This document shows, piece by piece, positions 2 to 32,050 of a stretch of DNA of 64,000 nucleotides. Origin of the DNA: Kiloniellales bacterium (GTDB taxonomy: Bacteria > Pseudomonadota > Alphaproteobacteria > Kiloniellales > JAKSDN01); contig JBFJPL010000003.1 of the NCBI GenBank assembly GCA_041617155.1, forward strand, positions 19,189-83,188, written 5' to 3'. The notes beneath the pieces are model-generated. The model had not been told where the DNA came from. It did no database searches and worked only from the letters and a program-made list of their open reading frames with translations. Position numbers and translations under genes: made by a program. Position 1 is the stretch's first letter. The number at the start of each line of letters is the position of its first letter.

Positions 2-718
2 TATGCCTTCGGGGTCGACATGGGATCGAAGAGCGACGGCCGCTTCCATGCCGACGGCAGCGTTTATTCGACCGGCCTGATCGACGACTACGCCACCGCG
101 ACCCTGAGCTTCCCGGGCAACTTCGGCGGCCAGGCGAGCGGCGAGGCGATCCTCAACTGGTCGCGCAGCGTTCTGGAAAACGTGCTCGCCTCGCACCGCA
201 GCGTGCGGGTCTACAACTGCAGCGACGGCGTTCGCATCGCCGGCGCCTTGCCCAAGGTGGCGCGCGCGATCGAGTTGCCGGCCGATCCGGTCGACGCCGC
301 GGCGCTCAAGCGGAGCATCGCCGGGTCTTTGCGCGTCTTTACCGCCAAGTTGCTGCAAGACATGTGGGACGGCGACGCCCGGCTGGCCGAGGTCGAGGCG
401 GTCTTCGATCGCCTGGAAGCCGACCTACGGGACAACGAGGACGGTGCGGAGCAGGGCATCGGCTGGATCCACGCGCTGTTCGAGACCGTCGGCCGGGCCG
501 GCGAACAGAGCGCGGTCACCAAGGCCTACTTGACCGGCACGACGCTGCTGATCATCGGCTGTGTCCGCTGGTACGACCGGCGGCTCGCCGACGCCAAGGA
601 CCGGACGCGCTATCGCGAAATCGCCGCGCAACTGGTGCGTGAGACCTTCCGCGATATGAGGCGGCAGTTGACCGAGCTGGTCCGGGAAACCGACCAGCGC
701 CTGCGCGCGGTCGGCTAG
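2..718 (+). CDS. C-terminal part of a hypothetical protein whose 5' end lies upstream of the window. Flagellin-locus associated, function unknown; a Maf/DUF115-type flagellin-modification role is only a guess.
   Basis: The frame of ORF 20..718 stays open back to base 2 (YAFGVD-MGSKSDGRF...), so the gene is cut by the window edge. Its stop TAG 716-718 lies in the palindrome CTAG that also supplies the stop of the convergent gene. Confidence 0.55.
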   Translation, partial: YAFGVDMGSKSDGRFHADGSVYSTGLIDDYATATLSFPGNFGGQASGEAILNWSRSVLENVLASHRSVRVYNCSDGVRIAGALPKVARAIELPADPVDAAALKRSIAGSLRVFTAKLLQDMWDGDARLAEVEAVFDRLEADLRDNEDGAEQGIGWIHALFETVGRAGEQSAVTKAYLTGTTLLIIGCVRWYDRRLADAKDRTRYREIAAQLVRETFRDMRRQLTELVRETDQRLRAVG

Positions 719-2706
719 ACGCCGGGTTTACGTGAGGGCCCCCGCGGGGCTCCGGTGGCGCAGTGGTCGCGCCACATGGCCCGGTAGGCCTGTTCCAGAG
801 CCCGCGCGAAACCGGCGACGTCGGCCAGCGGCGAGCGGCTCACCGCCTCGCGCAGGCCGGCCCGCAGCTCGGCCAGACGGCCAAGGTCGGCCGACAGGTC
901 AGCGGCCAGGGCGGCGAGCGCCGCTGCGGATTCGGCGGCCCAGCCGGGATGGCCCGCCGCGGCGACCAGACTTGCCCCCAGTCTCGTGCCGTGCCGGTCG
1001 CCGCTCAGGACCAGCAGCGGTACGCCCATCCACAAGGCCCGGCAGTTGTCCGCCAGCTCGCCCAGCGACCCGTTGGAGAGCGCCAAGTCGACGTGCTGGT
1101 AGAAATCGAACTCGGTCTGGAAGTTGTCGGCCATGTTGACGACATCGACACGGTTGCGCAGACCCAAGTGCGCGAACAGTTCCAACGGCCGGTCGATGCA
1201 GGACTGGTCCTGGTCGAAGCGGTTGCAGATCAATAGCCTGGCCCGGTCGAGCGACCGCAGCAGCCCGGCCCAGTGCGCCACGGTCCGCGGGCCGATCGCG
1301 CCCAGCTCGCCCGAGACGCCAAGCGTCAGGTGCCCGTGCGCCGGCGCGGGCAGGGGGCCGACCGGCGGCAGCAGGCTCGGCGCGCCGTAGGCGAAAGCGG
1401 CGCGTGGCAGGCGCCACACGGCCTCGCCGGTCGCGGGCGGCGGACAGTCGGCGGGCCAGGCCAGCTCGTCGGTGACGAAGTGGTCGATGGCGGCGACGCC
1501 GGTCGGATGCGGCGTGCCGAACCAGCTGAGCGCCACGGGCGCCGGGCGCCGGGCGAAGACCAGCGGTCGGCCGCCCTGTTCGTGGCCCGACAGATCGACC
1601 GCGATGTCGATCTGGTCGCCACGCAGGATTTGCCAGACCGTCTCGTCGTCGACTCCGGTGATGTCGGTCCACTTGTCGGACCGGCGCATCAGTCCCTCGG
1701 AGGTCACGTCGCTGCGGGTGCCGTCGCTGTAGCAGAAGAGCTCGACCGCCGTGCGGTCGTGCGCCTCGAGGATCGGCTTGAGCAGGCGCATCAGGTCATT
1801 GTCGTAGAACCCGCCCGAGAGGTAGGCGACGCGCAGCCGGCGCTCCGGTTCGGCATCTGCGCCTGCCGCCGGCCGCCAGGGCTCGATCCCGCCCGCGTGG
1901 CGCTGCTGCCATTCCCGATGGGCCGCGGTGAGGGCCGCGCTGGGGGTCTCCGGATCGCGCGCCAAATCCGCCAGCCAGAGGGAGTGCAGATCGGCGCGCT
2001 CCGGCGCCAGGTCGACGGCGGTCCGGTGGCAGGCGTCGGCCTCCGCCACCCGGCCGGCGGCGCTCAGGGTTCGAGCCAGGCCACTGACGTCCTCGGCCAG
2101 CGCCACGCCGTCATGGAGCACCGCGTGGAACGCTGCCATCGACCGTTCGAGCTGGCCGTTGCCGTAGCCGGCGCGGGCCATGAGCCGCAGGGTCGGAACA
2201 TCGCCGGGCGTCAGCTCGAGCTGTTTCCCGCTGTCGGCGGCCGCGCCGGCGAAATCGCCGGCTTCGAGCTTGCGCCGCGCCCGGTCGCGATAAACATGGC
2301 GATGGGTCGTCTCCAGGTTCCTGAAGAAGCTGCCGAAGCGCGCCGGCAGCAGACCCGTGATGGTCGGATGGGGCGCCAAGGCGGTCGCCACCTTGGCATG
2401 GAACAGCCCGTCGGCGACCTTGCCCAGGCGCGCGTAGGTCGCGGCCAGCGCCTCGGCGAATTCCTGAACGCCGGGATCGATCTCGTGCGCCTTTTCCAGC
2501 AGCTTGAGCGCCTGAGTCGGTTCATCGAGATCGAGCGTGACCAGGCCGAGCAGAAAGAACGCCTCGGCACATGCCGAATGCTGTTTCAGGGCGCTTTCGC
2601 AGGCCAGGATGGCGTCGTCGTGCAGCTCGGATTCCAGGCAGGCGGCCGCCTGTCGGATGGCCGCCGCAACCGCGCTCTCGTCCCGGTCCATGCCGGTCGG
2701 TTCCAT
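715..2706 (-). CDS. TPR-repeat plus GT41 (SPINDLY/OGT-like) glycosyltransferase; FlmG-like candidate flagellin glycosyltransferase
   Basis: 663 aa counted from ATG 2706 (MEPTGMDRDES...). The N-terminal half has TPR-like helices (AEAFFLLGLVTLDLDEPTQALKLLEKAHEIDP...). The C-terminal half matches the COG3914/OGT pattern (RLRVAYLSGGF...IDIAVDLSGHEQGGRPLVFARRPAPVALSWFGTPHPTGVAAIDHFVTDE). It sits 41 nt downstream of flagellin 1 on the same strand. The upstream 350 codons of track ORF 715..3780 are an out-of-frame shadow over the flagellin. Confidence 0.8.
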   Translation of the reverse strand: MEPTGMDRDESAVAAAIRQAAACLESELHDDAILACESALKQHSACAEAFFLLGLVTLDLDEPTQALKLLEKAHEIDPGVQEFAEALAATYARLGKVADGLFHAKVATALAPHPTITGLLPARFGSFFRNLETTHRHVYRDRARRKLEAGDFAGAAADSGKQLELTPGDVPTLRLMARAGYGNGQLERSMAAFHAVLHDGVALAEDVSGLARTLSAAGRVAEADACHRTAVDLAPERADLHSLWLADLARDPETPSAALTAAHREWQQRHAGGIEPWRPAAGADAEPERRLRVAYLSGGFYDNDLMRLLKPILEAHDRTAVELFCYSDGTRSDVTSEGLMRRSDKWTDITGVDDETVWQILRGDQIDIAVDLSGHEQGGRPLVFARRPAPVALSWFGTPHPTGVAAIDHFVTDELAWPADCPPPATGEAVWRLPRAAFAYGAPSLLPPVGPLPAPAHGHLTLGVSGELGAIGPRTVAHWAGLLRSLDRARLLICNRFDQDQSCIDRPLELFAHLGLRNRVDVVNMADNFQTEFDFYQHVDLALSNGSLGELADNCRALWMGVPLLVLSGDRHGTRLGASLVAAAGHPGWAAESAAALAALAADLSADLGRLAELRAGLREAVSRSPLADVAGFARALEQAYRAMWRDHCATGAPRGPSRKPGV

Positions 2707-2747
2707 GTCGGCGTTATCCGGCTTGCTCGTGGTCGCCCATGCCACGC

Positions 2748-3569
2748 CTACCTGAAGAGCTGCAGCACCGCCTGCTCGCTCTGGCCGGCGAAGGCCAGGG
2801 CGCTGATGCCCAGCTGCTGGCGGGTCTGCAGGGCCACCAGGTTGGCGCCCTCCTCGGTAATGTCGGCCAGGGTCAGCTTGTCGGCGCCGGCTTCGAGCAC
2901 GTTGACGTAGCTTTCGTTGAAGTCGAGCCGGGTCTGCAGCAGCGCGATGTTGGAGCCCAGCGTCTGGGCCTCGCCGCTGAGCGTTTCGATGGCGCTGGTG
3001 ATCTCGGCCAGGGCGGCGGTGATCACGCTGGCCAGGCTGAAGTTGGCCGCCGAGGTCAGGGCGAGCCCCGTGCTGCCCGCCCGGACGTCGATCGAATCGA
3101 TGTTGAGCACGCTCGTGGTATCTGTGCTGAACGACACCTCGAGGGTCTCGCCGGTGCCGTTCACCAGGTTCAGGCCCTGGTAGTTGGCGTCGCCGGTCAG
3201 GTTGTCGATCTGGGTGCGCAGCTCGTTGTACTGGTCGACCAGGCTGGTCAGCTCGTTGCCGGTCGCGGTCTTGGCGGCGATCGCCAGGCCCTTCATCTGC
3301 TGCACGATGGCGTCGACCGACTCGATAGCTTCCAGCGCCGTGGTGACCGAGGAGATCGACTGGTCGATGCCCTCCTTCTTCTCGTCCATGTCGCGCGCCC
3401 GGTCGCTGATCGCCTTCGATTCGAAGAAGATGCGGGCGTCGTCGATCGGGCTGGCAACCCGGAGCCCGGACGACAGCCGGTTCTGGGTGCGCGAGATCAG
3501 ACGCTCGGTGCTCAACAGCGCGAGCAGGTTCTCGCGCACGGCGGCGGAAAGGGAAATCTCGGAGGCCAT
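2748..3569 (-). CDS. fliC: Flagellin (short alphaproteobacterial type), paralog 1
   Basis: 273 aa. Conserved flagellin N-terminus (NRLSSGLRVASPIDDARIFFE) and C-terminus (LVALQTRQQLGISALAFAGQSEQAVLQLFR), with a Ser/Thr-rich centre. GGAG lies about 10 nt upstream of the ATG. Confidence 0.95.
   Translation of the reverse strand: MASEISLSAAVRENLLALLSTERLISRTQNRLSSGLRVASPIDDARIFFESKAISDRARDMDEKKEGIDQSISSVTTALEAIESVDAIVQQMKGLAIAAKTATGNELTSLVDQYNELRTQIDNLTGDANYQGLNLVNGTGETLEVSFSTDTTSVLNIDSIDVRAGSTGLALTSAANFSLASVITAALAEITSAIETLSGEAQTLGSNIALLQTRLDFNESYVNVLEAGADKLTLADITEEGANLVALQTRQQLGISALAFAGQSEQAVLQLFR
2772..2812. repeat. 41-nt stretch identical between the 3' ends of the two flagellin genes (partner copy at 3866-3906)
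   Basis: ctgctcgctctggccggcgaaggccagggcgctgatgccca is present at both positions. The surrounding roughly 130 nt differ at only scattered sites. Confidence 0.9.
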
Positions 3570-3628
3570 CGTCCCGTCTCCATACTGGAAGGGTTGCTAC
3601 GAACGGTCTTGTTCTTCGATGGCCTGGT

Positions 3629-3644
3629 TGCAATCGCTGTACCA
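3629..3644 (-). promoter_or_regulatory. sigma54-type -24/-12 promoter of flagellin 1
   Basis: The minus strand reads TGGTACAGCGATTGCA against consensus TGGCAC-N5-TTGCW, with correct GG-N10-GC spacing. It lies about 60 nt upstream of ATG 3569. Confidence 0.7.
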
Positions 3645-3719
3645 CAAGAAGTATGCAATTAAAACAGATAGTTAAAGATATCTGGTGAATTTCGTGGCGG
3701 TCATGCTTGCCGGTCGGGA

Positions 3720-3754
3720 GGCAGGCATTGCCGGGACCGATGGCAAAAGTTACC
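3720..3754. promoter_or_regulatory. Candidate enhancer (bEBP/FlbD-type) dyads upstream of the flagellin-1 sigma54 promoter
   Basis: GGCAGGCATTGCC (3720-3732) and GGCAAAAGTTACC (3742-3754) both follow the pattern GGCA-N5-T(G/A)CC. They lie 75-110 bp upstream of the promoter. Confidence 0.5.
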
Positions 3755-3778
3755 GGCGCCGCGGGGCGGCGCAGGGGC

Positions 3779-3807
3779 AAAAAAAGGGGGGCGCTTGCGC
3801 GCCCCCC
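3779..3807 (-). terminator. Rho-independent terminator after flagellin 2
   Basis: The minus strand reads GGGGGGCGC-GCAA-GCGCCCCCC followed by TTTTTTT, a perfect 9-bp GC stem. It lies 35 nt after the flagellin-2 stop and separates it from the flagellin-1 enhancer/promoter. Confidence 0.85.
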
Positions 3808-3841
3808 GAAAGGACCGATGGTCGGTGGGTCGTGCTGTCTC

Positions 3842-4663
3842 CTATCGGAACAGCGCCAACACCGACTGCTCGCTCTGGCCGGCGAAGGCCAGGGCGCTGA
3901 TGCCCAACTGCTGGCGAGTCTGCAATGCCACCAGGTTGGCGCCTTCCTCGGTGATGTCGGCCAAGGTCAGCTTGCCGGCGCCTTCCTCGAGAACGTTGAC
4001 GTAGTTCACGGTGAAGTCGAGGCGGGTCTGTAACAAGGCCACGTTCGAACCGATCTCCTGGCCCTCGCCTTCGAGGGTCTCGACCGCGGCATCGAGTTCC
4101 ACGATCGCCGCATCGATGTTCGAGGTGAGGCTGAAGTTCGCCGCCGAGGTGATGTCGAGGCCGGTCGTGTCGGTGGTCAGGTCGACCGAATCGATGGCCA
4201 GCTGGCTCGAGGTCAGGTTGCTGAACTCGACGGTCAGCGTCTCGCCGGTGCCGTTGACCAGGTTGAGGCCCTGGAAGGTGGCGTCGGCCGCCAGGTTGTC
4301 GATCTGGGTCAACAGCTCGTTGTACTGCGAGACCAGCGATGCCAGCTCGGTGCCGGTCGCCGATTTGGCGGCGATCGCCAGACCCTTGGCCTGACGGACG
4401 ACCGAGTCGATCGTCTCGACCGCCTCGAGGGCGGCGCTGACCGAAGAGATCGCCTGATCGATGCCGCTCTTCTTTTCGTCGAGCGCGCTGGCCCGGTCGC
4501 TGAGCGACTTGGCCTCGAAGAAGACACGCGCATCGTCGACCGGGCTCGCGATGCGCAGGCCGGACGACAGACGGTTGTTGGTGCGGTTGATCAGGTCGCT
4601 GGTGTTGCCCAGCGCGAGCACGCTGGCGCGTGCGGCTGCGGAAAGGGTGATTTCACTTGCCAT
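3842..4663 (-). CDS. fliC: Flagellin, paralog 2
   Basis: 273 aa, colinear with paralog 1 without indels. Same N and C termini (NRLSSGLRIASPVDDARVFFE ... ALAFAGQSEQSVLALFR). GGAG lies upstream of the ATG. Confidence 0.95.
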   Translation of the reverse strand: MASEITLSAAARASVLALGNTSDLINRTNNRLSSGLRIASPVDDARVFFEAKSLSDRASALDEKKSGIDQAISSVSAALEAVETIDSVVRQAKGLAIAAKSATGTELASLVSQYNELLTQIDNLAADATFQGLNLVNGTGETLTVEFSNLTSSQLAIDSVDLTTDTTGLDITSAANFSLTSNIDAAIVELDAAVETLEGEGQEIGSNVALLQTRLDFTVNYVNVLEEGAGKLTLADITEEGANLVALQTRQQLGISALAFAGQSEQSVLALFR

Positions 4664-4736
4664 TCTGGATCTCCATTCTGAAGCGTTATGTCATGGACCT
4701 TCTGGTCCCCGGGCCGTTCTGACCCACCCCTTCAGA

Positions 4737-4752
4737 CGCAATGGCCGTGCCA
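4737..4752 (-). promoter_or_regulatory. sigma54-type -24/-12 promoter of flagellin 2
   Basis: The minus strand reads TGGCACGGCCATTGCG, a near-perfect match with correct spacing. It lies about 75 nt upstream of ATG 4663. Confidence 0.8.
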
Positions 4753-4828
4753 CCCGAGGCGCGGCGGACCGCCCCAGGCGGCCCGCTGGCGCCTATACTT
4801 AATGCCGTTTAACCACGTGCTTCGACCC

Positions 4829-4882
4829 GGCAGAACTTACCGGGTTGCGCGGCAATTCTTGCCCAACGGGGCAGTTGTTGCC
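4829..4882. promoter_or_regulatory. Candidate enhancer dyads upstream of the flagellin-2 sigma54 promoter
   Basis: GGCAGAACTTACC (4829-4841), GGCAATTCTTGCC (4851-4863) and GGCAGTTGTTGCC (4870-4882). They lie 77-130 bp upstream of the promoter. Confidence 0.55.
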
Positions 4883-4917
4883 GGGCTGTCGATCGTTGGA
4901 TTTCGAGGGGGCGCCGA

Positions 4918-5751
4918 TCAGGCGAAGAGGTTGAGCACCGAGCCCGGTTCGACTTCCCGGGGCAGGAGCGTGCTCTCGGCCAGCGAGTCGGTGAGCGCCT
5001 GGGCGGCTTCGAAGGCGAAGGATATATTGGTCAGGATCTGCGCGGTGCGGTCGCGCAGCGCCTGGATCTCGTCGATCTGCTTCTTGCGCTCGGCGATCTC
5101 GATGTCGTCGATCTTGAGCTTGGCCTGGTCCAGGCTGCGGTCCACGGTTTTGATCAGGTTGACCGACAGCGTGTTGTTGATTTCGATGATCGCGAGCGAT
5201 CCGTCGAGGTCGCTCCTGACGGCGTCGATCGCATCCTGCGCGGCCTGAACGTCCGCCGCCGAGGCGAAGTCGTTGGTGACGATGGCCTCGATCGCCGCCA
5301 GGCCGTCGGCCTTGGTCGCCGCCAGCCCGTCCGGCGCGCCCAAGCGGCCGGGGGTGGCGCTCAGCAGCTTGTCCAGCGACTGCAGCACCTCGGCCCGCTT
5401 GCTGTCGAACTCGGCCACGGTCGTGGGATCGGCTAGCGCGCGCAGCTCATCGAGCTGATTCTGCAGGTCCTTCACGGTCAGCCGGTTGGTCTTGACCGTG
5501 GCGCTATAGGCTTTGACCTCCTCGAGTTCGCGTTCCAGGCGGCTTGCCTTGACCCGCAGCAAGGCGGTCTTGCCCTGCCCGAAGTCGGACTCCTGGAATT
5601 CCGCGATCTTCGCATCGAGGCGGGCCAGCTCGACGTTCTGGGCGATGTTGAACTGCAGCTCGAAGTTCGGGCGCGCCGCCGCCTGCGCCAGCCGCACCAG
5701 GGAGGTGGCGATGCTGTTGACGATGGTGTTATTGGTCGGAAACGTCAGCAT
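4918..5751 (-). CDS. Hypothetical coiled-coil protein in the flagellin/hook-associated-protein operon (unknown function)
   Basis: 277 aa, Ala/Leu/Asp/Glu-rich heptad-like sequence with no TM or signal peptide. Sits between flgL (78 nt upstream) and the flagellin-2 control region. The C-terminus ...EPGSVLNLFA resembles the flagellin ends ...SVLALFR / AVLQLFR. I recognise no family. Confidence 0.7.
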   Translation of the reverse strand: MLTFPTNNTIVNSIATSLVRLAQAAARPNFELQFNIAQNVELARLDAKIAEFQESDFGQGKTALLRVKASRLERELEEVKAYSATVKTNRLTVKDLQNQLDELRALADPTTVAEFDSKRAEVLQSLDKLLSATPGRLGAPDGLAATKADGLAAIEAIVTNDFASAADVQAAQDAIDAVRSDLDGSLAIIEINNTLSVNLIKTVDRSLDQAKLKIDDIEIAERKKQIDEIQALRDRTAQILTNISFAFEAAQALTDSLAESTLLPREVEPGSVLNLFA

Positions 5752-9133: not shown

Positions 9134-9592
9134 CTAGAGAACCTGGTTGACCGATACCGCTGGCAGCGTGTCCACCGGTCCGCCTTCGCTCAATCCGCCG
9201 TTCGCCTGGTAGCGGTTGCCGCCGCGCTGCTCGTCACGCACCGCGTGGGCGATGGCTCTCACCAGGCGGCCGTTGACCTCGATCCCGGCCCTGAGCGCAA
9301 GCGCATTTGCTTCGGTCGCGGCGGCCAGATCTTGCGCCGCCGCCTTGATCGCGGTCTTTGCCTCGGAGTCGAGGTCCCGCAGCAGTTCCGGACGGTCGGC
9401 CAGCTGGCCGAGCAGGTCCCGGTAGGTCTTCGTCGCGGCCTGCTTATCGGGCAACAGGGATTCGATCTCCCCGGTGCGCATGGTCTCGAGCAGCCGAACT
9501 TCGTCCTGCATCAGCGCCGTCAGGCGGCCGACGGTCCGGGTCAGTTGTTCGGCAATCCGGGGGGCCGTCGTCTCAGTGGTGTTCTCGGTCAC
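9134..9592 (-). CDS. Small helical flagellar protein, FlgN/FlbY-like (putative export chaperone or assembly factor)
   Basis: 152 aa, all-helical composition. Lies between flgJ and flgK with a 4-nt overlap to flgJ, a position equivalent to flbY in the Caulobacter flgI-cheL-flbY operon. The family assignment rests on context and composition only. Confidence 0.5.
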   Translation of the reverse strand: MTENTTETTAPRIAEQLTRTVGRLTALMQDEVRLLETMRTGEIESLLPDKQAATKTYRDLLGQLADRPELLRDLDSEAKTAIKAAAQDLAAATEANALALRAGIEVNGRLVRAIAHAVRDEQRGGNRYQANGGLSEGGPVDTLPAVSVNQVL

Positions 9593-11129: not shown

Positions 11130-11145
11130 TGCGAAAGGCGTGCCA
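11130..11145 (-). promoter_or_regulatory. sigma54-type -24/-12 promoter of the flgI-flgJ-flgN-like-flgK-flgL operon
   Basis: The minus strand reads TGGCACGCCTTTCGCA, with correct spacing and one mismatch in the -12 element. It lies about 60 nt upstream of ATG 11069. Confidence 0.7.
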
Positions 11146-11242
11146 CTCTCAGGGCTGTGGAAAAGCTCAGGAAATCAGGTATATAGGTTTCCCAAGACAA
11201 TGCGTAGGCGGCCAGCCGCCAAGCACCCGGCAAGGATGAACC

Positions 11243-11255
11243 GGCAACAATTACC
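11243..11255. promoter_or_regulatory. Candidate enhancer dyad upstream of the flgI sigma54 promoter
   Basis: GGCAACAATTACC lies about 100 bp upstream of 11130-11145. A related GGTACAGTTTGCC lies at 11672-11684. Confidence 0.4.
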
Positions 11256-11317
11256 CGCGGACGGCTGCTGATGGACCTTGGAATTTCAGCGCGAGAAGAT
11301 CGGCGCGTCGGGCAGGC

Positions 11318-11668: not shown

Positions 11669-11807
11669 CAGGGTACAGTTTGCCTATTATCACTAATATA
11701 TAGCACATAGCATCATGATGCAAATGTATTAATAAAAACTTTACTGCACACTACTATTCCGATGCCTGGTTTCATCTGGGAAAGCCACACGAATCTGCGT
11801 TTTATGA

Positions 11808-11822
11808 TTAACGGATTGTTAA
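11808..11822. promoter_or_regulatory. CtrA-type box (TTAA-N7-TTAA) upstream of fliX
   Basis: TTAACGGATTGTTAA is a perfect match. It lies 61 nt upstream of the fliX ATG within a roughly 210-bp AT-rich divergent region. Confidence 0.6.
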
Positions 11823-11882
11823 CCCCGGCGCTCCCAGTCTGGTCGATGGATGCGAGCCATGAGCAGGTAGTGAGCAGCTAGA

Positions 11883-12296
11883 ATGAAGATCGATCCTCTT
11901 GCCAAACAGCGCCTGTCACCGACCCGGCGCAGCGAGCGCGCCAAGCAGCCGGAGGCGGGCGGTTTTGCCGAGGAACTGAGCGGCGAGGCCCCGGCCGGCG
12001 GCTCGGTCGGCGGCGCCACGGCGCCCAGTCCGGTCGACGGCCTGCTTGCCCTGCAGGAGGTGTCGGACGGCTTGGCGCGCCATGCCAAGGCGCGGCAGCG
12101 CGGCGAGGCCCTGCTCGAAGAGCTCGATAGACTGCGCCTGGATCTCCTGACCGGGACACTATCCAAGGCCCGGCTGGAGCATCTGGCGGCTTTGACGGCG
12201 GCGCAGCGGGAGCGGATCGATGATCCACACTTGGCGCAGATCATCGAGGAGATCGAGCTGCGGGCGGCGGTCGAACTGGCCAAACTCGACCACTAG
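11883..12296 (+). CDS. fliX: Class II flagellar assembly regulator FliX
   Basis: 137 aa. GLLALQEV...RQRGEALLEELDRLRLDLLTG...DPHLAQIIEEIELRAAVELAKL fits the FliX family pattern. It is divergent from the flgI-containing strand as in Caulobacter, with a perfect TTAA-N7-TTAA box 61 nt upstream. Confidence 0.7.
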   Translation: MKIDPLAKQRLSPTRRSERAKQPEAGGFAEELSGEAPAGGSVGGATAPSPVDGLLALQEVSDGLARHAKARQRGEALLEELDRLRLDLLTGTLSKARLEHLAALTAAQRERIDDPHLAQIIEEIELRAAVELAKLDH

Positions 12297-16300: not shown

Positions 16301-16313
16301 AATCAAAGACTTA
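16301..16313. promoter_or_regulatory. Candidate IHF site between the enhancer dyads and the flgF sigma54 promoter
   Basis: AATCAAAGACTTA matches WATCAANNNNTTR exactly. It sits in an AT-rich spacer between 16283 and 16357. Confidence 0.45.
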
Positions 16314-16356
16314 TCAGTTAGAATATATTAACTAGCGAACTCATATCATCGATTCC

Positions 16357-16383
16357 GGCAGGGCTTGCCCGGCAGTTGTTGCC
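16357..16383. promoter_or_regulatory. Candidate tandem enhancer dyads upstream of the flgF sigma54 promoter
   Basis: GGCAGGGCTTGCC (16357-16369) is immediately followed by GGCAGTTGTTGCC (16371-16383). The 14-mer GGCAGTTGTTGCCG is identical to 4870-4883. Confidence 0.55.
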
Positions 16384-16428
16384 GCAGGCCGCTTCGAGGC
16401 CGCTGCCGGACGCAGTCTCAACCAGATG

Positions 16429-17078: not shown

Positions 17079-18080
17079 ATGGCTGAACCAGAGGCGGCGA
17101 CGGACAAAGACGCCGGTGGCTCGACCAAGATCCTCAACCAGGCCGAGATCGACAGCCTGCTCGGCGGCCACGACGGCCTGGACGCGCGTTCGGGTATCGC
17201 GGCGATCGTCGATTCGGCGCTCGTCTCCTACGAGCGCCTGCCCATGCTCGAGGTCGTATTCGACCGCCTCGTGCGCATGATGTCGACCTCGCTGCGCAAC
17301 TTCACGTCCGACAACGTCGAGGTCCACCTGGAGTCGATCTCCTCCTCGCGCTTCGGCGACTACCTCGATTCGATTCCTCTGCCCGCCATGCTGACGGTGT
17401 TCAAGGCGGAGGAATGGGACAACTTCGGCCTCATGGCGGTCGACTCCTCGCTGATCTATTCGATTGTCGACGTTCTGTTGGGCGGCCGGCGCGGCTCCGC
17501 CGCCGTACGCATGGAAGGCCGGCCCTACACCACGATCGAGCGCAACCTGGTCGAGCGCATGGTGCACGTCGTCCTGGCCGACCTATCGGCCGCTTTCGAC
17601 CCCTTGTCGCCGGTCACCTTCCGTTTCGAGCGGCTGGAATCCAACCCGCGCTTTGCCACCATTGCTCGGCCGGCCAACGCCACCGTCGTCGCCCAGCTGC
17701 GGGTCGAGATGGAGGATCGTGGCGGCCGCTTCGAGCTGATGCTGCCCTACGCCACCCTGGAGCCGGTCCGCGAGCTCTTGCTGCAGATGTTCATCGGCGA
17801 GAAGTTCGGCCATGACTCCATTTGGGAAAGCCATCTGACCACCGAGCTGTGGCAGACCGAGCTGCCGATCCAGGCGGTGCTCGACGAAGTCGAGGTGCAC
17901 TTGGGCGAAGTCATCGGCTGGACCGAAGGCAGCCGCCTCGAACTCAACTGCGGCCCGAATTCGAAGGTCGAGCTGCGGTGCGGCGACATCGCCATGTTCG
18001 AGGGCCAAATGGGACGAAAGGGATCGAACATCGCAGTGCGGGTCGCCGGCAAGCTGACCGGCAACGGGGAGTCCACCTGA
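17079..18080 (+). CDS. fliM: Flagellar motor switch protein FliM
   Basis: 333 aa. It has the N-terminal CheY-P-binding-type motif ILNQAEIDSLLG and central FliM core similarity (LEVVFDRLVRMMSTSLRNF...). Confidence 0.9.
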   Translation: MAEPEAATDKDAGGSTKILNQAEIDSLLGGHDGLDARSGIAAIVDSALVSYERLPMLEVVFDRLVRMMSTSLRNFTSDNVEVHLESISSSRFGDYLDSIPLPAMLTVFKAEEWDNFGLMAVDSSLIYSIVDVLLGGRRGSAAVRMEGRPYTTIERNLVERMVHVVLADLSAAFDPLSPVTFRFERLESNPRFATIARPANATVVAQLRVEMEDRGGRFELMLPYATLEPVRELLLQMFIGEKFGHDSIWESHLTTELWQTELPIQAVLDEVEVHLGEVIGWTEGSRLELNCGPNSKVELRCGDIAMFEGQMGRKGSNIAVRVAGKLTGNGEST

Positions 18081-18592
18081 TGGATCTGTTGCCGTTCGAA
18101 CACTGGAGCCTATTGGCCGACGCGGTTCTCGCGGTCCTCCTGGTCGCGACCATCGCCTATGCCGCGATACTCGAGCGCAAGCTCTCGGGCCTGCGCGCCG
18201 CGAAGCAGGAAATGGCGGAGCTGGTCGGCCGCTTCACCGAGGCGACCAAGCGCGCGGAGAACGGCTTGGCCGAGATCAGGCAGACCGCGGAGGAAACCGG
18301 CCGAACCCTGCAGCAGGCCCTGGAGAAGGGCAACAGCTTGGCCGACGACCTGGTTTTTCTGGTTGAACGCGGCGATGCCGTTGCCGGCCGGCTCGAGCGG
18401 GGCGCCGCAAAGGGCCGTGGCCGAGCGACCGCCGAGCCACCGCCGGCCGGCCCACGGTCGGTCGCCAAAGGCCCCGGGGGAACCGCTGCAAAGGCGCCCG
18501 CTCCGGCGGCCGCCGAGGACGACGCCACATCGAGCCGCAAGCGCACGCCGGAGCAGTCCGCTCTGATGGCGGCCCTGCGGGCCATGCGCTAG
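18080..18592 (+). CDS. Hypothetical membrane-anchored coiled-coil protein with an Ala/Pro-rich tail (flagellar cluster, unknown function)
   Basis: 170 aa from ATG 18080, which overlaps the fliM stop (TGATG). It has an N-terminal TM (WSLLADAVLAVLLVATIAYAAIL), then a helical segment and a low-complexity tail. The 86 codons upstream of it in track ORF 17822..18592 overlap fliM out of frame. Confidence 0.7.
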   Translation: MDLLPFEHWSLLADAVLAVLLVATIAYAAILERKLSGLRAAKQEMAELVGRFTEATKRAENGLAEIRQTAEETGRTLQQALEKGNSLADDLVFLVERGDAVAGRLERGAAKGRGRATAEPPPAGPRSVAKGPGGTAAKAPAPAAAEDDATSSRKRTPEQSALMAALRAMR

Positions 18593-18610
18593 GAGCCCGA
18601 GGAAGCGGAC

Positions 18611-19252
18611 ATGAAGCTACGCCTTCTGCCTTTGCTGATCTTTGCGGCCGGCACCGGAGTCCTGTTCCACCTGGGCGATTTGTGGCGGGGCTTCGGCCCC
18701 TTGGCCCAGGTCGCGGCGGCGGAGGGCGAAGCGAAGCCCGCCAAGGCGGCGAAAGCCGGCGCTCGCTACGAGCCAGCCGGGCCGAAAACGGCCGGCGAGA
18801 TGTCGCCTCGGACCGCCACCTTGGCCAGCGACCCCTTCAATCTGACCGATGAAGAGATCGACCTGCTGCAGAAACTGGCCGAGCGCCGGTCAGAACTCGA
18901 GAGCCGTGCGGCGGAGTTGGAACAGCGCCGTACTCTCTTGGAAGCGGCCGAGCGCCGCATCGACGAGAAGATCGGCGAGCTGGAGGCGATCCGGAAAAAC
19001 ATCGAGGGCCTGCTGGTGCGCCACGACGAGCAGGAAGAGGCGCAACTCAACAGCCTGGTCAAGATCTACGAGAGCATGAAACCCAAGGATGCCGCGCGGA
19101 TTTTCGAAGAGCTCGACATGGTGGTGCTGCTCGATGTGATCGAGCGCATGAAGGAACGCAAGACCGCGCCGATCCTGGCCAAGATGAACCCGCGGCGCGC
19201 CAAGGCGATCACCTTGGAGCTGGCTCAGCGCCGCGGCCTGCCGGGCTCCTAG
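18611..19252 (+). CDS. MotE/FlbB-like protein (MgtE-N-like helical domain; putative periplasmic stator chaperone)
   Basis: 213 aa with a signal/TM segment, a coiled coil (EIDLLQKLAERRSELESRAAELEQRRTLLEAAERRIDEKIGELEAIRKNIE), then LVKIYESMKPKDAARIFEELDMVVLLDVIERMKERKTAPILAKMNPRRAKAIT. This pattern matches COG3334/MotE-type proteins. Confidence 0.55.
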   Translation: MKLRLLPLLIFAAGTGVLFHLGDLWRGFGPLAQVAAAEGEAKPAKAAKAGARYEPAGPKTAGEMSPRTATLASDPFNLTDEEIDLLQKLAERRSELESRAAELEQRRTLLEAAERRIDEKIGELEAIRKNIEGLLVRHDEQEEAQLNSLVKIYESMKPKDAARIFEELDMVVLLDVIERMKERKTAPILAKMNPRRAKAITLELAQRRGLPGS

Positions 19253-19257
19253 TCCGG

Positions 19258-19947
19258 ATGGAGCGCGCCGGGCAAACCTCACCGGCCGAGCGTGGCGACC
19301 CGAACATCGTCGCCTTGCTCGGGCTCAAACTGCTGCTTTTGGGGTTTTTCATTCTGTTGAACGCGCTGTCCCACTATGAGGAGGACCGGACTCGACGGGT
19401 TCTGCAAAGCGTCGACCAGGCCTTCAACGGCCGCATCGAAGCCTTGAAAAGCGAGGCTGAACATTCCGCTGCCCTGGGGCCGCTGAACGGAACCGAGGCG
19501 ATGATCGACTCGGTGGGGGCGCTCTTTACTTCGCTGATACCGGCGGTTGAGCGAGAGCTATCGGCCGCCGGCACGCGCCTGCGCCTGGAGCTGCCGGTCG
19601 CTGCCCTGTTCCGACAGGACAGCGTCGCCCTGCAGTCGGGTCGCGGCGTGCTGATGAAACGCTTCGCCGAAGCCTTGACCCAAAACGGCCGCGGCCGACT
19701 CAACTATGAGGTCGAGCTCTTGCACGGCATAAGGCGCGAGGCGATCTCGGACCTGACCGAAGCCGGCGCCGACTCGCTGGAAGTTCGGCGCATCGCCGCC
19801 CTGGTCCTTGCCCTGACCAAACGCGGCGTGCCCGCGGACAAGCTGTCCGTCGGCGTCATCCCCGGCCGGCCCGGCAAGGTCCAGATGGTGGTGCAAACCT
19901 ACCAGCGGGCGGGCCCGGCATTCGACTACGGGGAGCTGGCGCGATGA
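19258..19947 (+). CDS. Degenerate MotB/OmpA-like paralog (single TM, no conserved plug-region Asp)
   Basis: 229 aa. The TM segment IVALLGLKLLLLGFFILLNALS aligns with the MotB-like AWMLTFTDLVALMLTFFVMLFAMS of the next gene but has K where that has D. The C-terminal LRLELPVAALFRQDSVALQSGRGVL...SLEVRRIAALVLALTKRGVPADKLSV parallels the OmpA-like VLIALPGDLLFAPGSTELATTGRQAL...ELSLARALRVAQVLRDSGY. The GHxD motif is replaced by LLHG. Confidence 0.6.
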   Translation: MERAGQTSPAERGDPNIVALLGLKLLLLGFFILLNALSHYEEDRTRRVLQSVDQAFNGRIEALKSEAEHSAALGPLNGTEAMIDSVGALFTSLIPAVERELSAAGTRLRLELPVAALFRQDSVALQSGRGVLMKRFAEALTQNGRGRLNYEVELLHGIRREAISDLTEAGADSLEVRRIAALVLALTKRGVPADKLSVGVIPGRPGKVQMVVQTYQRAGPAFDYGELAR

Positions 19948-20735
19948 CGGAGCCAGGGAGTGTCGAAGCGGACGGCGCCGAACCGGGGGCCGCCAATCGC
20001 GCTTGGTGGCTCGCGCTATCGAACCATGCAGCGGCCGCGCAGCGTGAAGCGCCTTTGGCGCGCGGCTCTGCCTGGATGCTCACCTTTACCGACCTGGTCG
20101 CCCTGATGCTGACCTTCTTCGTCATGCTCTTCGCCATGTCCAAGGTGGAAAAGCGCGAATGGGAGAACCTGACCGACGCTCTGGCGCCGAAGCTGAACGT
20201 CGTGAGCAAGCTGTCCATCGCCCTGCCGACAGAGTCGCGCGATGTCGACGCGGTCGAGACCTTGCCGTCGGTCGATTTGAACTATCTGGCGGCCTTGTTG
20301 AAACAGGACATGGCCGATGATCCCCTGCTCGGCCTGGGCATCCTGCGCCGCTTGGAGCGGCGTGTCCTGATCGCGCTGCCGGGCGATCTGCTCTTTGCGC
20401 CCGGATCGACCGAGCTCGCCACGACCGGGCGGCAAGCCTTGACCGGCTTCGTCGGCCTGCTGCGCCACGTGAACAACCGGATCGAAGTCATGGGCCACGC
20501 CGATCCGCGCCAACCGATTGCCGGCTTTGCCTCCAATTGGGAACTCTCCCTGGCGCGGGCCCTGCGGGTCGCCCAGGTGTTGCGCGATTCCGGGTACCGG
20601 GGCCAGGTGGTCGCACGCGGCTTCGGCCATTCACGCTTCGAGTCGCTTTCGCCGCGGCTCCGGCCGGCGCAGCGCTTGACCTTGGGACGCCGGGTCGAAC
20701 TGGTGATACACGACGACGCCGGAGAAGCACGCTGA
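19944..20735 (+). CDS. motB: MotB-like flagellar stator protein (OmpA-family C-terminal domain)
   Basis: 263 aa. It has the MotB N-terminal signature (WMLTFTDLVALMLTFFVMLFAMS) and an OmpA-like domain (LFAPGSTELATTGRQALTGFVGLLRHVNNRIEVMGHADPRQ...NWELSLARALRVAQVL). ATGA start/stop overlaps occur on both sides. Confidence 0.8.
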   Translation: MTEPGSVEADGAEPGAANRAWWLALSNHAAAAQREAPLARGSAWMLTFTDLVALMLTFFVMLFAMSKVEKREWENLTDALAPKLNVVSKLSIALPTESRDVDAVETLPSVDLNYLAALLKQDMADDPLLGLGILRRLERRVLIALPGDLLFAPGSTELATTGRQALTGFVGLLRHVNNRIEVMGHADPRQPIAGFASNWELSLARALRVAQVLRDSGYRGQVVARGFGHSRFESLSPRLRPAQRLTLGRRVELVIHDDAGEAR

Positions 20736-23700
20736 TGGCTCGGCGGCAGGCAAAGATCGCCGCGCTTCTCGGCGGGTTTCTGGTCGCGGCGCTGCCGGTC
20801 CCGGCGGCCGTGGCCGAACCGCCGGACCAAACGGCGCCCGCGCTCAACCTGCGCAGCGGCGAACACGAAGGTTTCAGCCGCCTGGTGTTCGATTGGGATG
20901 CGCCGGTGACCTACAGCATCGAGGAGACGCCGAGCGGTGCCACGGTGTCTTTCGACCGGCCGGCCCGACTCGACCTGAAGAGCTACCGAAAAGATCCCTC
21001 GCCGGGCATTCTGGACCTCACCTTGGGCCCAGGCGACGACGGCCTCACGGTTGCCCTGCGGTTGCCCGAGGGCGCCAACCTGCGCCATTTTCTCAGCGGC
21101 CCCAAGGTGGTCATCGACGTGCTCGCCCCGGGCGCCGGCGCGGCCGAAGCGCAGGCCGATCAGGAAAGCGCCGCCGCCGGGGCGGCGCCCGAATCGCTCG
21201 GCAATTCCATCCTGAGCGATGCCGTGGAAGCCGCCGTGGCCCTGACCGGTGACACGCGGGCGAACCGCGCCGGCACCCGCCCGACCCGGCTCGGCGTTGC
21301 ACCCAAGGCCGCCGAACCGAAAGCGCCGCCGCGCCGCGCCGCGCCGCGTCCGGCGACCTCAAGCAAGGCATCGAGACGAAAACTGGTCGTCACCTACGAG
21401 CGGCCGCCCCTGCCGGCGGCAATGCCGGTGCCCGGTATGACGGCGCCGCGCTACCGCCCTCTGGCGATCCGCCTGAAGGGCATCGCCGGCGTAGCCGCCG
21501 CCGCCTTTCGCCGTGGCCAGCACCTATGGCTGGTGTTCGATTTGCCGGCCCGGGTCAACATCGCCAGGCAGATTCAGCGGATCGCGCCAGAACTGGCGCC
21601 GGTGTTGCAGCTCGAGCGACCAGACATCGTGGCCCTGCGCTTGACTGTGCCGCTGGGTGTGGCGCCGAAGCTGCGGCGCGACGGCACCGACTGGCTGGTC
21701 GACCTGCGGCCGCGCCTGATCCGGCCGGAAAAGCCGGCGACCCTCGACCTTCGCGCCGGCCATGACGGCCCTCGGCTTGTCTTTCCGGTTACCGGCGCGG
21801 GCCGGCTGATCCAGCTGGACGACCCGGATATGGGCGACCGGGTTCACGTGCTGCCGGTTTCGCTTGCCGATTTCGGCCTGGCAACGGCCCGCGATTTCCC
21901 ACAGTTCCAGGCGCTCGCCACCTATCAAGGACTGGCCATCGTGCCGCGGTCCGACAGGCTGTGGATCACGCTCGACAAGGACGCCTTGAAGATCACCTCG
22001 TCGGCCGGCCTTCTGGTCACCGCGGGATTGGACACCGACGCCGAGCCGAACGAGGAGGAGACGGTCGCGGGCAAGCGACGGCTGTTCGACCTGGCGGCCT
22101 GGCGCGAGGTCGACGGCGACGACTTCGAAACCAATCGAAAACTGCTGCAGCGCGCGATTATCGCGCCGGGCGACGCCCGGAGTCTCGATCTCGCGCGGCT
22201 CCGGCTGGCACGATTCTTTTTCGCCCATGGCTTGGCCACCGAGACCTTGTCGGTGATCAGGCTGATGGCGCGTGAGCGCGGGCGTTTCGCCGCCGATCCG
22301 GAGATGATCCTGCTCGAGGGCGCCGCTGCTTTCCTGGCGCAGGACTTTCACGCCGCAGCGGCCAGCCTTTCCCACCCGGCCCTGGAGGGCGAGGCCGAGG
22401 CCGTGATCTGGCGCGCCGCCATGTCGGCGGCGGCCCAGGACTGGCCCTATGCCGCGGAGCTGTTCGAGCAAGGCAAGGCGACGATCCAGGACTACCCGCG
22501 CGCGGTGCGCGTCCGGCTGCATCTCTTGGCGGCCGAGGCGCGCCTGGCGATCGGCGACACCGGCGGCGCCAGCTTCTACCTGAAACAGGCGCTTGAGGCT
22601 CAATCGACCGATTTCGAGCGGGCCCAGATCGATTTCCTCGAAGGCCGGCGCCTGCTGGCAGACCAGCGTCCGGAGCGCGCGCTGCCCCTGTGGCGGCGTG
22701 TCGCCGCCTCGACGCACCGGCCGTCCCAGGCAAGGGCGCGCCTGGCCCTGGTCAACCAAGGCCTGAAAGCGGGCACGCTCGAACCGGCCTCCGCGATCGC
22801 CGAACTGGAGCGTCTGCGCTTTGTCTGGCGGGGCGACGAGTTCGAGGCGGCGCTGCTTGAACGCCTGGGCCGGCTCTACGCCGACGCGGGCGACTACCGG
22901 GATGCCCTGGTCGCCCTGCGTCAGGCGGCTTCCCACTTCCCCGGTTCGGTCCGCGCCGAAGCGGCGGCGCGCCATATGCGCAAGCTCTTCGCCTCGCTTT
23001 ACCTGGGCGACAAGCGCGCGAGCCTGTCGCCGCTGGCGGCCTTGGCGCTATACCGCGAGTTCGAGGAACTGACGCCTGCCGCGCAGGACGGCAACCGCCT
23101 GATCGACAACCTGGTCGACCGGCTGGTCGAGATCGATCTTCTGGGCCAGGCGGCGGAACTGCTGGAAGACCAGATCGCCCGCCGCCTGGCCGGCGAAAAG
23201 CGGGCGCGGGCCGGCGCGCGTCTGGCGCTGGTCCGGCTGCTCGACCGCCAGCCTGGGCACGCGCTCGAGGCGCTGAACTCGAGCGCCGCCAAGAAACTGC
23301 CCAGCGCCGTCGAGCGCCGGCGCCGCCACCTCAGGGCGCGCGCGCTTGCCGGGCTGCACCGCGGGCGCGACGGGCTGGCCGTGCTGGCCGGCGACGAGAG
23401 CGAGGATGCACGCAAGCTGCGCGCGGAGATCCTGTGGCAGCTGCGCGACTGGCCGGCGGCGGCCGTCGCGCTGGCCCGGCTGATCCCGAGAGATCCGCCC
23501 AAGGAGCGAGCGCTCGATGCCGTCGAAACCCAGACCGTGATCGACCTGGCGACCGCCTATACCCTGGCAGGCGACCGCCGGGCGCTCGACGATCTGGCGC
23601 GGCGCTTCGGCAAGGCCATGGCCGAGAGCGGCAAGGCCGACAGCTTTACCCTGCTGACCAGCGACTTCGGCAAGGCCAACTTGGCCGCGGTGGCCGACGA

Positions 23701-23785
23701 GCTGGCCGGGGTCGAACGGATCCAAGCCTTCATCGCGAGCTATCGCGCGCGGGTCCGCAAGGACGGCCTCAGCAACCTGAACTAG
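20735..23785 (+). CDS. Large secreted AMIN-like plus TPR-repeat protein (flagellar cluster, unknown function)
   Basis: 1016 aa from ATG 20735, which overlaps the motB stop (TGATG). It has a signal peptide (AALLGGFLVAALPVPAAVA), an AMIN-like segment (LNLRSGEHEGFSRLVFDWDAPVTYSIEETPSGATVSFDRPARLDL...VVIDV), an Ala/Pro-rich linker, and a long C-terminal helical-repeat region rich in A/L/R. The track ORF start 20537 is an out-of-frame overlap with motB. Confidence 0.75.
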   Translation: MARRQAKIAALLGGFLVAALPVPAAVAEPPDQTAPALNLRSGEHEGFSRLVFDWDAPVTYSIEETPSGATVSFDRPARLDLKSYRKDPSPGILDLTLGPGDDGLTVALRLPEGANLRHFLSGPKVVIDVLAPGAGAAEAQADQESAAAGAAPESLGNSILSDAVEAAVALTGDTRANRAGTRPTRLGVAPKAAEPKAPPRRAAPRPATSSKASRRKLVVTYERPPLPAAMPVPGMTAPRYRPLAIRLKGIAGVAAAAFRRGQHLWLVFDLPARVNIARQIQRIAPELAPVLQLERPDIVALRLTVPLGVAPKLRRDGTDWLVDLRPRLIRPEKPATLDLRAGHDGPRLVFPVTGAGRLIQLDDPDMGDRVHVLPVSLADFGLATARDFPQFQALATYQGLAIVPRSDRLWITLDKDALKITSSAGLLVTAGLDTDAEPNEEETVAGKRRLFDLAAWREVDGDDFETNRKLLQRAIIAPGDARSLDLARLRLARFFFAHGLATETLSVIRLMARERGRFAADPEMILLEGAAAFLAQDFHAAAASLSHPALEGEAEAVIWRAAMSAAAQDWPYAAELFEQGKATIQDYPRAVRVRLHLLAAEARLAIGDTGGASFYLKQALEAQSTDFERAQIDFLEGRRLLADQRPERALPLWRRVAASTHRPSQARARLALVNQGLKAGTLEPASAIAELERLRFVWRGDEFEAALLERLGRLYADAGDYRDALVALRQAASHFPGSVRAEAAARHMRKLFASLYLGDKRASLSPLAALALYREFEELTPAAQDGNRLIDNLVDRLVEIDLLGQAAELLEDQIARRLAGEKRARAGARLALVRLLDRQPGHALEALNSSAAKKLPSAVERRRRHLRARALAGLHRGRDGLAVLAGDESEDARKLRAEILWQLRDWPAAAVALARLIPRDPPKERALDAVETQTVIDLATAYTLAGDRRALDDLARRFGKAMAESGKADSFTLLTSDFGKANLAAVADELAGVERIQAFIASYRARVRKDGLSNLN

Positions 23786-25609: not shown

Positions 25610-25846
25610 TCAGTCGGTCGGTTTCTTGCCCTTCTCCTGCTCGGTCACCTGACCTGCCTGCTGGGTCGCGGCGGCCGCCCGGTTTTCGGCCTGTATGCGC
25701 TCGTGGATCTCGCGACGCAGCACGGTGGCGGTCGGCGGAAAGGTAAAGCCCAGTTTGATCGACTTGCCCCGAATGTCGATGACGGTGACTTCGATGTCGT
25801 CGTTTATGATGACTGACTCGCCGATCTTGCGTGTCAGATAGAGCAT
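25610..25846 (-). CDS. csrA: Carbon storage regulator / translational repressor CsrA homolog with a C-terminal extension
   Basis: 78 aa from ATG 25846. MLYLTRKIGESVIINDDIEVTVIDIRGKSIKLGFTFPPTATVLRREIHERI matches the CsrA fold sequence (MLILTRKxGESIxIGDDIxVTVLxIxGxQVRLGIxAP). The 22 upstream codons of the track ORF are not CsrA-like. Confidence 0.85.
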   Translation of the reverse strand: MLYLTRKIGESVIINDDIEVTVIDIRGKSIKLGFTFPPTATVLRREIHERIQAENRAAAATQQAGQVTEQEKGKKPTD

Positions 25847-25912
25847 GAGCTGCTTGCGCCTTTTCCAATTCGGCGGCGCCCCACGGCGCAACCCCCAGCA
25901 TTTATCATGCAA

Positions 25913-29566: not shown

Positions 29567-32050
<2,484 letters not shown>

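Follow-up and report, generated by a model that had tools for sequence, protein, structure and literature searches.

The stretch analysed here, 64,000 nucleotides of contig JBFJPL010000003.1 from a Kiloniellales bacterium (hereafter the window), carries a flagellar gene cluster in which two flagellin genes lie on the minus strand, each preceded by a sigma-54 promoter and, further upstream, by short inverted repeats (dyads) with a GGCA-N5-T(G/A)CC core. In Caulobacter, the activator FlbD binds elements called ftr near class III/IV flagellar promoters, which need sigma-54 and integration host factor (IHF) (PMC3930126, PMC3096577, PMC4083442), and ChIP-seq has located FlbD at class III/IV promoters (PMC4083442).

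Flagellin genes and their control regions

Genes were called with Pfam and NCBIfam scans of the open reading frames (ORFs) of the window. The two flagellins are 72% identical to each other, and the solved structures nearest to flagellin 1 are the Caulobacter FljK/FljL/FljM/FljN flagellin filaments. The elements of this part of the window are as follows.

3842..4663, minus strand: flagellin gene 1, 273 aa, Pfam Flagellin_N and Flagellin_C
2748..3569, minus strand: flagellin gene 2, 273 aa, Pfam Flagellin_N and Flagellin_C
4752..4737, minus strand: sigma-54 -24/-12 promoter of flagellin gene 1, TGGCACGGCCATTGCG, -24 element of the TGGCAC type
3644..3629, minus strand: sigma-54 -24/-12 promoter of flagellin gene 2, TGGTACAGCGATTGCA, TGGTAC variant
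4841..4829, minus strand: dyad of flagellin 1, GGTAAGTTCTGCC
4863..4851, minus strand: dyad of flagellin 1, GGCAAGAATTGCC
4882..4870, minus strand: dyad of flagellin 1, GGCAACAACTGCC
3732..3720, minus strand: dyad of flagellin 2, GGCAATGCCTGCC
3754..3742, minus strand: dyad of flagellin 2, GGTAACTTTTGCC
3786..3807, minus strand: intrinsic terminator 3' of flagellin 1, a 9-bp all-GC stem followed by T7, kept in the alignment of relatives

The two sigma-54 elements and the five dyads had been proposed earlier from the letters alone (the sequence-only reading), and on reading the sequence all seven were found on the minus strand where that reading had put them. The promoter of flagellin 1 stands 89 nt and that of flagellin 2 stands 75 nt before the ATG (strand reading of positions 2400-5400), with predicted transcript starts at about 4726 and 3619, which for flagellin 1 gives a 5' untranslated region (5'UTR) of about 63 nt. 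Since the terminator at 3807..3786 lies between the two flagellin genes, these form separate transcription units, each with its own promoter. A hairpin or terminator role for the dyads themselves was considered and rejected, since a stem of 4-5 bp closing a 3-5-nt centre is too weak; the actual terminator is the one at 3786-3807.

Promoters and dyads at flgI and flgF

The sequence-only reading was an undercount, as the window has four promoters of this kind rather than two, and the regulatory gene fliX is present as well. The two additional control regions contain the following elements.

11145..11130, minus strand: sigma-54-like promoter of the flgI operon, TGGCACGCCTTTCGCA, one mismatch
11240..11258 (core 11243-11255): ftr-like dyad upstream of flgI, ACCGGCAACAATTACCCGC, 16.8 bits
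16283..16268, minus strand: sigma-54-like promoter of the flgF-flgG-flgA-flgH operon, TGGCATGCAAACTGCA
16301..16313, plus strand: exact match to the IHF consensus between the flgF promoter and its dyads, AATCAAAGACTTA
16354..16386: pair of overlapping ftr-like dyads between the divergent flgF and fliL genes, scoring 12.2 and 18.6 bits

The flgI operon, with a predicted transcript start at about 11119 and its ATG at 11069, is tightly packed in the order flgI, flgJ-N, a weakly FlgN-like ORF, flgK, flgL and a 277-aa ORF; its dyad lies 98 bp upstream of the promoter element, with the centre 105 bp upstream of the -24 GG. For flgF the likely start is the GTG at 16209, judged from the offset of the Pfam rod-protein domain, with a transcript start predicted at about 16257. 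The two dyads precede the flgF -24 GG by 81 and 95 bp and, in the other direction, the fliL ATG by about 110-140 bp. When compared with TGGCAC-N5-TTGC, the flagellin promoters have zero to one mismatches, flgI one and flgF two, and the predicted 5'UTRs of all four sigma-54 promoters of the window are about 50-63 nt. Pairs of dyad and sigma-54 element are found at middle and late genes, namely flgF-G-A-H, flgI-...-flgK-flgL and both flagellin genes.

Distribution of the dyad motif

Dyads were scored with a symmetric 19-bp matrix derived from 30 sites that precede the flagellin genes of relatives; the window's own sites were excluded, which avoids circularity. The consensus of the matrix is CCGGCAA-N3-TTGCCGG; of its 60 half-sites, 49 have the flanking C and 49 the flanking G, and the highest possible score is 26.6 bits. 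At a cut-off of 12 bits the 64-kb window gave eight matches, where Markov simulations averaged 1.3 and never exceeded 5, and all eight lie in four flagellar intergenic regions: flagellin 1 (three), flagellin 2 (two), flgI (one) and flgF/fliL (two). In each of these four regions the matched dyads precede a sigma-54 -24/-12 element by about 60-125 bp, and a sigma-54 scan with GG and GC fixed returned just four intergenic candidates, one for every dyad-bearing region. At the flagellin genes the 19-bp ftr-like dyads, including a weak third one at flagellin 2, are these.

4826-4844: flagellin 1, 19.7 bits
4848-4866: flagellin 1, 17.5 bits
4867-4885: flagellin 1, 15.9 bits
3714..3696, minus strand: flagellin 2, weak third dyad, ACCGGCAAGCATGACCGCC, 9.8 bits
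3717-3735: flagellin 2, 13.3 bits
3739-3757: flagellin 2, 17.0 bits

Counted upstream from the -24 GG, their centres are at 84, 106 and 125 bp for flagellin 1, where all three positions align with sites in relatives, and at 62, 83 and 105 bp for flagellin 2.

Perfect copies of GGCA-N5-TGCC number five in the window where 2.0 are expected (five being reached by 2 of 100 shuffles), three of them at the flagellin genes and the other two between flgF and fliL (16357-16383). The GGCA-N5-TACC form occurs six times against 0.77 expected, a number reached by none of 100 shuffles: twice at the flagellin genes, and at 11243 (upstream of flgI), 11672, 9208 and 35170 (in alaS). The sequence-only reading had held that its five dyads were all in flagellin control regions; their flagellar location stands, but more dyads occur at flgI, at flgF/fliL and elsewhere in the window. 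The extra matches at flgF/fliL and flgI are themselves in flagellar control regions, and the non-randomness rests on the location of the dyads and not on their count.

Two copies of the TACC form are set apart from the others. The one at 11672-11684 abuts the flaG-like ATG and has weak flanks (less than 8 bits), while the one at 9208-9220 lies within the weakly FlgN-like ORF, 100 bp upstream of flgK, and scores 9.2 bits. No sigma-54 site was seen downstream of either, and they may be chance occurrences, or weak or repressive sites.

Conservation in related bacteria

A flagellin homology search of a genome collection gave 46 loci (L001-L046), the closest of which come from Kiloniellales/Kiloniellaceae and "Rhodospirillales" metagenome-assembled genomes with 81-83% flagellin identity, the range extending down to 61%. 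Most of the relatives' flagellin genes have a sigma-54 promoter 70-92 nt before the ATG and one to four dyads further upstream. In alignments with the three closest relatives (flagellins 81-83% identical), the three dyads and the -24/-12 element are kept while the spacers diverge, and conservation of the dyads extends to relatives with 61% flagellin identity. All four promoters have conserved counterparts in relatives. The flagellin 1 promoter is kept in L001/L002/L005 and in more distant relatives, the TGGTAC variant of the flagellin 2 promoter is identical in L001/L002/L005, and the TTCGCA variant of the flgI promoter recurs together with its upstream dyad in L001-L003, L005, L010-L013 and L015.

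The association between the two elements was counted over the window plus 19 related loci (L001-L019), 374 kb together. Of the 71 dyads, 46 fall in the intervals 50-160 bp upstream of sigma-54-like sites, which together make up only 1.2% of the sequence, and at least one dyad was found at 32 of 39 sigma-54-like sites. A downstream control interval of equal size contained no dyad, compared with the 46 upstream, and a non-redundant set with the window excluded and one locus per lineage gave 27 dyads upstream and none downstream. Measured from the -24 GG, the dyad centres fall into groups at about 61, 81-86, 101-108 and 124-125 bp. Successive groups are about 21 bp or two helical turns apart, a spacing expected of sites required to lie on one face of the DNA.

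The pairing was also seen further away, at the fliX/flgI divergent pair (17586-19888) on the chromid of about 1 Mb of Niveispirillum cyanobacteriorum (Azospirillaceae; NZ_CP025613.1, locus L048), a record almost devoid of annotation. Here flgI has a sigma-54-like site at 19781 with an ftr-like match about 95 bp upstream, and the sigma-54-like sites at 19781 and 17586 (minus strand) both have ftr-like matrix matches 65-105 bp upstream. The dyad motif is therefore not confined to the lineage of the window.

Comparison with Caulobacter and with other sigma-54 systems

The FljK sequence taken from the PDB alignment led, by homology search, to a 20.8-kb Caulobacter vibrioides locus (L047) with the gene order flbT-flaF-fljL-fljK-flaG-fljJ. 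The fljK gene has the sigma-54 promoter TGGCCCGGCAATTGCT, and upstream of fljK one reads, in order, CCCGGCAACAATTTCCC, CCCGGCAGAAATTGCCGGG, an AT-rich stretch and TTGGCCCGGCAATTGCT. The perfect dyad CCCGGCAGAAATTGCCGGG is centred 83 bp and the half-degenerate CCCGGCAACAATTTCCC 112 bp upstream of the -24 GG, and when the Kiloniellales-derived matrix was run on this locus its best match was CCCGGCAGAAATTGCCGGG, with 23.6 of 26.6 bits. In a second Caulobacter-like locus the distal site, too, is a perfect GGCA-N5-TGCC. Judged by its sequence, the CCGGCAA-N3-TTGCCGG dyad corresponds to the Caulobacter ftr element. Caulobacter spp. also have flagellin genes in other genomic contexts that are 87-89% identical to FljK (L051, L052); no sigma-54 or ftr elements were found upstream of these, so the FlbD-type promoter is not common to all Caulobacter flagellin paralogues.

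The window shares with Caulobacter class III/IV genes the -24/-12 promoter, the 19-bp dyad with its GGCA-N5-TGCC core and CC/GG flanks, the presence of two or three dyad copies about 83-125 bp upstream of the -24 GG, the targets (273-aa flagellins, flgI and the flgF-flgG-flgA-flgH operon) and a sequence of CtrA-box form at an early gene. The divergence of flgF-flgG-flgA-flgH from fliLM and of fliX from the flgI region mirrors the Caulobacter arrangement. The RpoN/FlbD-dependent set of Caulobacter includes rod and ring genes, and the targets in the window (flgF operon, flgI, flagellins) match it (PMC6180460). The differences are that the host of the window is Kiloniellales-like and not a member of the Caulobacterales, that its flagellin genes have three phased sites where fljK has two, that its -24 hexamer has the canonical form (TGGCAC or TGGTAC) where Caulobacter has TGGCCC, that the spacer of flagellin 1 is rich in GC and lacks an IHF match, that csrA is part of the cluster, and that flbT/flaF were not found, nor flbD observed, in the window.

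Tandem dyads about 100 bp upstream of a sigma-54 promoter are likewise a feature of the NtrC enhancers of enteric glnAp2 and of the NifA upstream activating sequences. Enhancer sites of NtrC and NifA lie on the same helical face and act by looping, in some cases with IHF, and the recognition sequences are TGCACC-N5-GGTGCA for NtrC and TGT-N10-ACA for NifA. The window differs from these systems in recognition sequence, in regulon and in signal input (NtrC responding to nitrogen status via phosphorylation), and the NtrC-type TGCACC-N5-GGTGCA is not the consensus conserved here, which is CCGGCAA-N3-TTGCCGG. Sigma-54-dependent rod, hook or flagellin genes are also found with FleQ/FleR in Pseudomonas, FlrA/FlrC in Vibrio, FlgR in Campylobacter/Helicobacter and FleQ/FleT in the Rhodobacter sphaeroides fla1 system (PMC3930126, PMC7064773, PMC6180460). 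Unlike what is seen in the window, the FleQ/FlrA/FlgR-type systems rely on sensor kinases or a master enhancer-binding protein (EBP), and some of the activators bind downstream or do not bind at all. None of the FleQ/FleR, FlrA/FlrC, FlgR and FleQ/FleT systems has FliX, and their binding sites are not known to be GGCA-N5-TGCC dyads.

FliX, a CtrA-box form and the proposed regulation

Three further features of the window bear on the regulation of the cluster.

11883..12296, plus strand: fliX, class II flagellar assembly regulator, full-length match to PF10768 (E = 1.2e-34), divergent from flaG-like/flgI
11808..11822, plus strand: CtrA-box form TTAA-N7-TTAA, TTAACGGATTGTTAA, 61 bp upstream of the fliX ATG
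29567-32050, plus strand: hybrid PAS histidine kinase directly after flhB, best NCBIfam match CckA

The NCBIfam FliX match (E = 5.6e-34) is below the curated cutoff of the model, and so is the CckA match of the kinase (759 bits, E = 4e-228, cutoff 1000). A minus-strand ORF at 11819-12283 that overlaps fliX was rejected as spurious. The TTAA-N7-TTAA sequence is the only one in the window, with 0.01 expected, and its position at fliX and the CckA-like kinase are consistent with an early flagellar tier driven by CtrA. FliX binds FlbD and couples the activity of FlbD to assembly (PMC3096577), and homologues of both occur in dozens of alphaproteobacteria with polar flagella, Rhodospirillum and Magnetospirillum (PMC3096577) and R. 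centenum (PMC2890560) among them.

Taken together, we consider it probable (roughly 85%) that the window contains four sigma-54-dependent flagellar promoters under a system of the FlbD/FliX type, with one to three 19-bp dyads as their enhancers. The Caulobacter class III/IV architecture of sigma-54 promoters with ftr enhancers, to which the sequence-only reading had likened the flagellin control regions, gains support from the fljK match, from fliX and from the conservation in relatives, FlbD being the presumed binding protein. As flbD is found neither in the window nor in the relatives' loci, we infer from fliX and the dyad motif that the activator is encoded elsewhere in the genome. An FlbD-type activator of the NtrC family would bind each dyad as a dimer, and neighbouring dyads about 21 bp apart on one face of the helix would promote the assembly of the active oligomer. 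The DNA between would be looped, possibly with the help of IHF at least at flgF and through intrinsic AT-rich bendability at flagellin 2, and ATP hydrolysis would open the sigma-54 closed complex at the promoters of flgF, flgI and the flagellin genes. FliX, behind the CtrA-box form, may tie the activity of FlbD to a completed early basal-body/export structure, and through this gating the rod, ring, hook-associated and flagellin genes are proposed to fire late. The dyads between flgF and fliL could in addition repress the divergent early fliL promoter, like ftr4 at Caulobacter fliF.

An AT-rich spacer suited to bending by IHF had also been suggested between the dyads and the promoters. This suits flgF, whose spacer has 39% GC and the only exact spacer match to the IHF consensus (of which 13 matches within one mismatch occur in the whole window, both strands), and it suits flagellin 2 as far as AT-richness goes, with 42% GC overall and one 30-mer at 20%, though not as a consensus match; flagellin 1 does not conform. 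Several observations have to be set against the FlbD/FliX interpretation. The spacer of flagellin 1 is GC-rich (69% GC), and the IHF consensus WATCAANNNNTTR is in neither flagellin spacer, even at one mismatch. The flgF promoter departs from the sigma-54 consensus at two positions, and the raw number of perfect dyads is only marginally above chance. No EBP signature (GAFTGA, Walker-A) was found in any frame of the window or in L001-L046, and no RpoN box in any frame of the window. Finally, that the fljK upstream element is the ftr bound by FlbD is an assignment which we take from the older literature, together with general statements in PMC3930126 and PMC4083442. The signature searches agree with the earlier statement that the window has no flbD or rpoN gene; the Pfam Sigma54_activat family, too, had no match among the window ORFs scanned, and the search of the Niveispirillum locus for EBP motifs found none.

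The FlbD/FliX/ftr/sigma-54 hierarchy is already known from Caulobacter, and what is new is its occurrence in a Kiloniellales-like marine alphaproteobacterial lineage; it is not a new mechanism. If the proposed assignment is right, the FlbD recognition element and the geometry of its enhancers (about 61, 83, 105 and 124 bp from the -24) have remained essentially unchanged from Caulobacterales to Kiloniellales/Rhodospirillales-like bacteria, which supports the view that the hierarchy of CtrA, FliX/FlbD and sigma-54 is ancestral to polarly flagellated alphaproteobacteria. The CCGGCAA-N3-TTGCCGG matrix is ready for use in annotating FlbD regulons in uncultured alphaproteobacteria.

Alternative explanations

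Other proteins could in principle act at these dyads. Another sigma-54 activator, such as a master regulator of the FleQ/FlrA type, a two-component regulator of the FleR/FlrC/FlgR type or NtrC, would fit the lack of an activator gene in the window, and many polar flagellates do run their rod and hook genes with other EBPs (PMC7064773). We nevertheless regard this as improbable, given that the dyad matches the element upstream of Caulobacter fljK in core, flanks and distance, that fliX, known only as a partner of FlbD, is present, and that no sensor kinase of the FleS/FlrB type adjoins the genes, the sole hybrid kinase in the window being CckA-like. The NtrC consensus and the FleQ boxes are also different sequences. 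Still less credible is that the dyads upstream of the flagellar promoters are operators of a conventional repressor or activator that is not an EBP. Short dyads of this kind, with arms of 4-5 bp about a 3-5-bp centre, are indeed generic sites for dimeric regulators, one copy abuts the flaG-like start codon (11672-11684) and two are in the divergent fliL promoter region, but the association with sigma-54 sites is strictly directional (46 upstream against 0 downstream), and sites that lie 60-125 bp away and are phased by 21 bp are typical of enhancers and not of operators. Moreover, every sigma-54 promoter depends on an EBP for firing, and a site for one must therefore exist near each promoter.

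A chance origin, either as a by-product of GC-rich composition or as fragments resembling sigma-54 elements, would draw on the five perfect dyads against 2.0 expected (2 of 100 shuffles), on the likeness of GGCA and TTGC to pieces of the -24/-12 element and on the fact that the pattern search also matched the promoters themselves in L008/L009. This explanation is effectively refuted by the matrix scan, in which all eight strong matches fall in the four flagellar intergenic regions, by the association count over 374 kb and by the downstream control. Conservation across relatives down to 61% flagellin identity, the conserved flanking C and G (49 of 60 each) and the dyad spacing of GG-N8-GC, as against GG-N10-GC in sigma-54 promoters, also speak against it.

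Flagellin leaders and csrA

Among relatives, the leaders of the two flagellin genes (4664-4728 and 3570-3621, minus strand) vary less than the promoter spacers do. That of flagellin 1 is nearly invariant and carries a GGACC-AGAA-GGTCC hairpin, and a CAG-W-AUGGAGA motif over the Shine-Dalgarno sequence is common to both. The conservation of the leaders, the hairpin of flagellin 1 and the shared motif suggest post-transcriptional control. The folding energy of the flagellin 5'UTRs was no better than that of shuffles (z = -1.1 and -0.3), and an Rfam scan of the region gave no match.

A csrA homologue (25610-25912, minus strand, TIGR00202 E = 4e-21) is located between an FlhB-C-like ORF and flgB. 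No fliW was recognised among the window ORFs scanned. A tblastn search of the window with Caulobacter FlbT and FlaF did not find either gene, but both are present in the more distant relatives L008, L009, L011 and L015. We can imagine, although we think it unlikely, a CtrA, FliX/FlbD and sigma-54 hierarchy with a different late checkpoint, in which the nearly invariant flagellin leaders would be targets of CsrA, rather than or besides FlbT/FlaF, and in which the triple ftr arrays phased by 21 bp would nucleate a full FlbD hexamer on the DNA. If true, this would combine flagellin control of the alphaproteobacterial type with that of the Bacillus/Campylobacter style.

Other genes of the cluster

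On the minus strand the cluster comprises a TPR/GT41 protein, flagellin 2, flagellin 1, the 277-aa ORF, a flgL-like gene, flgK, the weakly FlgN-like ORF, flgJ-N, flgI and a flaG-like gene, and further on flgH, flgA, flgG and flgF, as well as fliP, fliO and csrA. The plus strand carries fliX, dksA, fliL, fliM, motB, flgB, flgC, fliE, fliQ, fliR and flhB. Two conserved or long ORFs have no assigned family: the 277-aa ORF (4918-5751, minus strand), which is directly upstream of the flagellin genes and conserved in the relatives' loci, had no family match, and a 1082-aa ORF between motB and fliP (20537-23785, plus strand) had no convincing one.

The TPR/GT41 gene (715-2745, minus strand) starts on the flagellin 2 stop codon and encodes a 676-aa protein with TPR and a GT41-type glycosyltransferase. 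It is a candidate flagellin glycosyltransferase, with an architecture like that of Caulobacter FlmG (PMC7591256). About 25 kb from the flagellar cluster, beside a PadR-family gene, there is an isolated 132-aa ORF (54373-54771, plus strand) that matches the C-terminal domain of flagellar rod proteins (Flg_bbr_C) with E = 9e-6.

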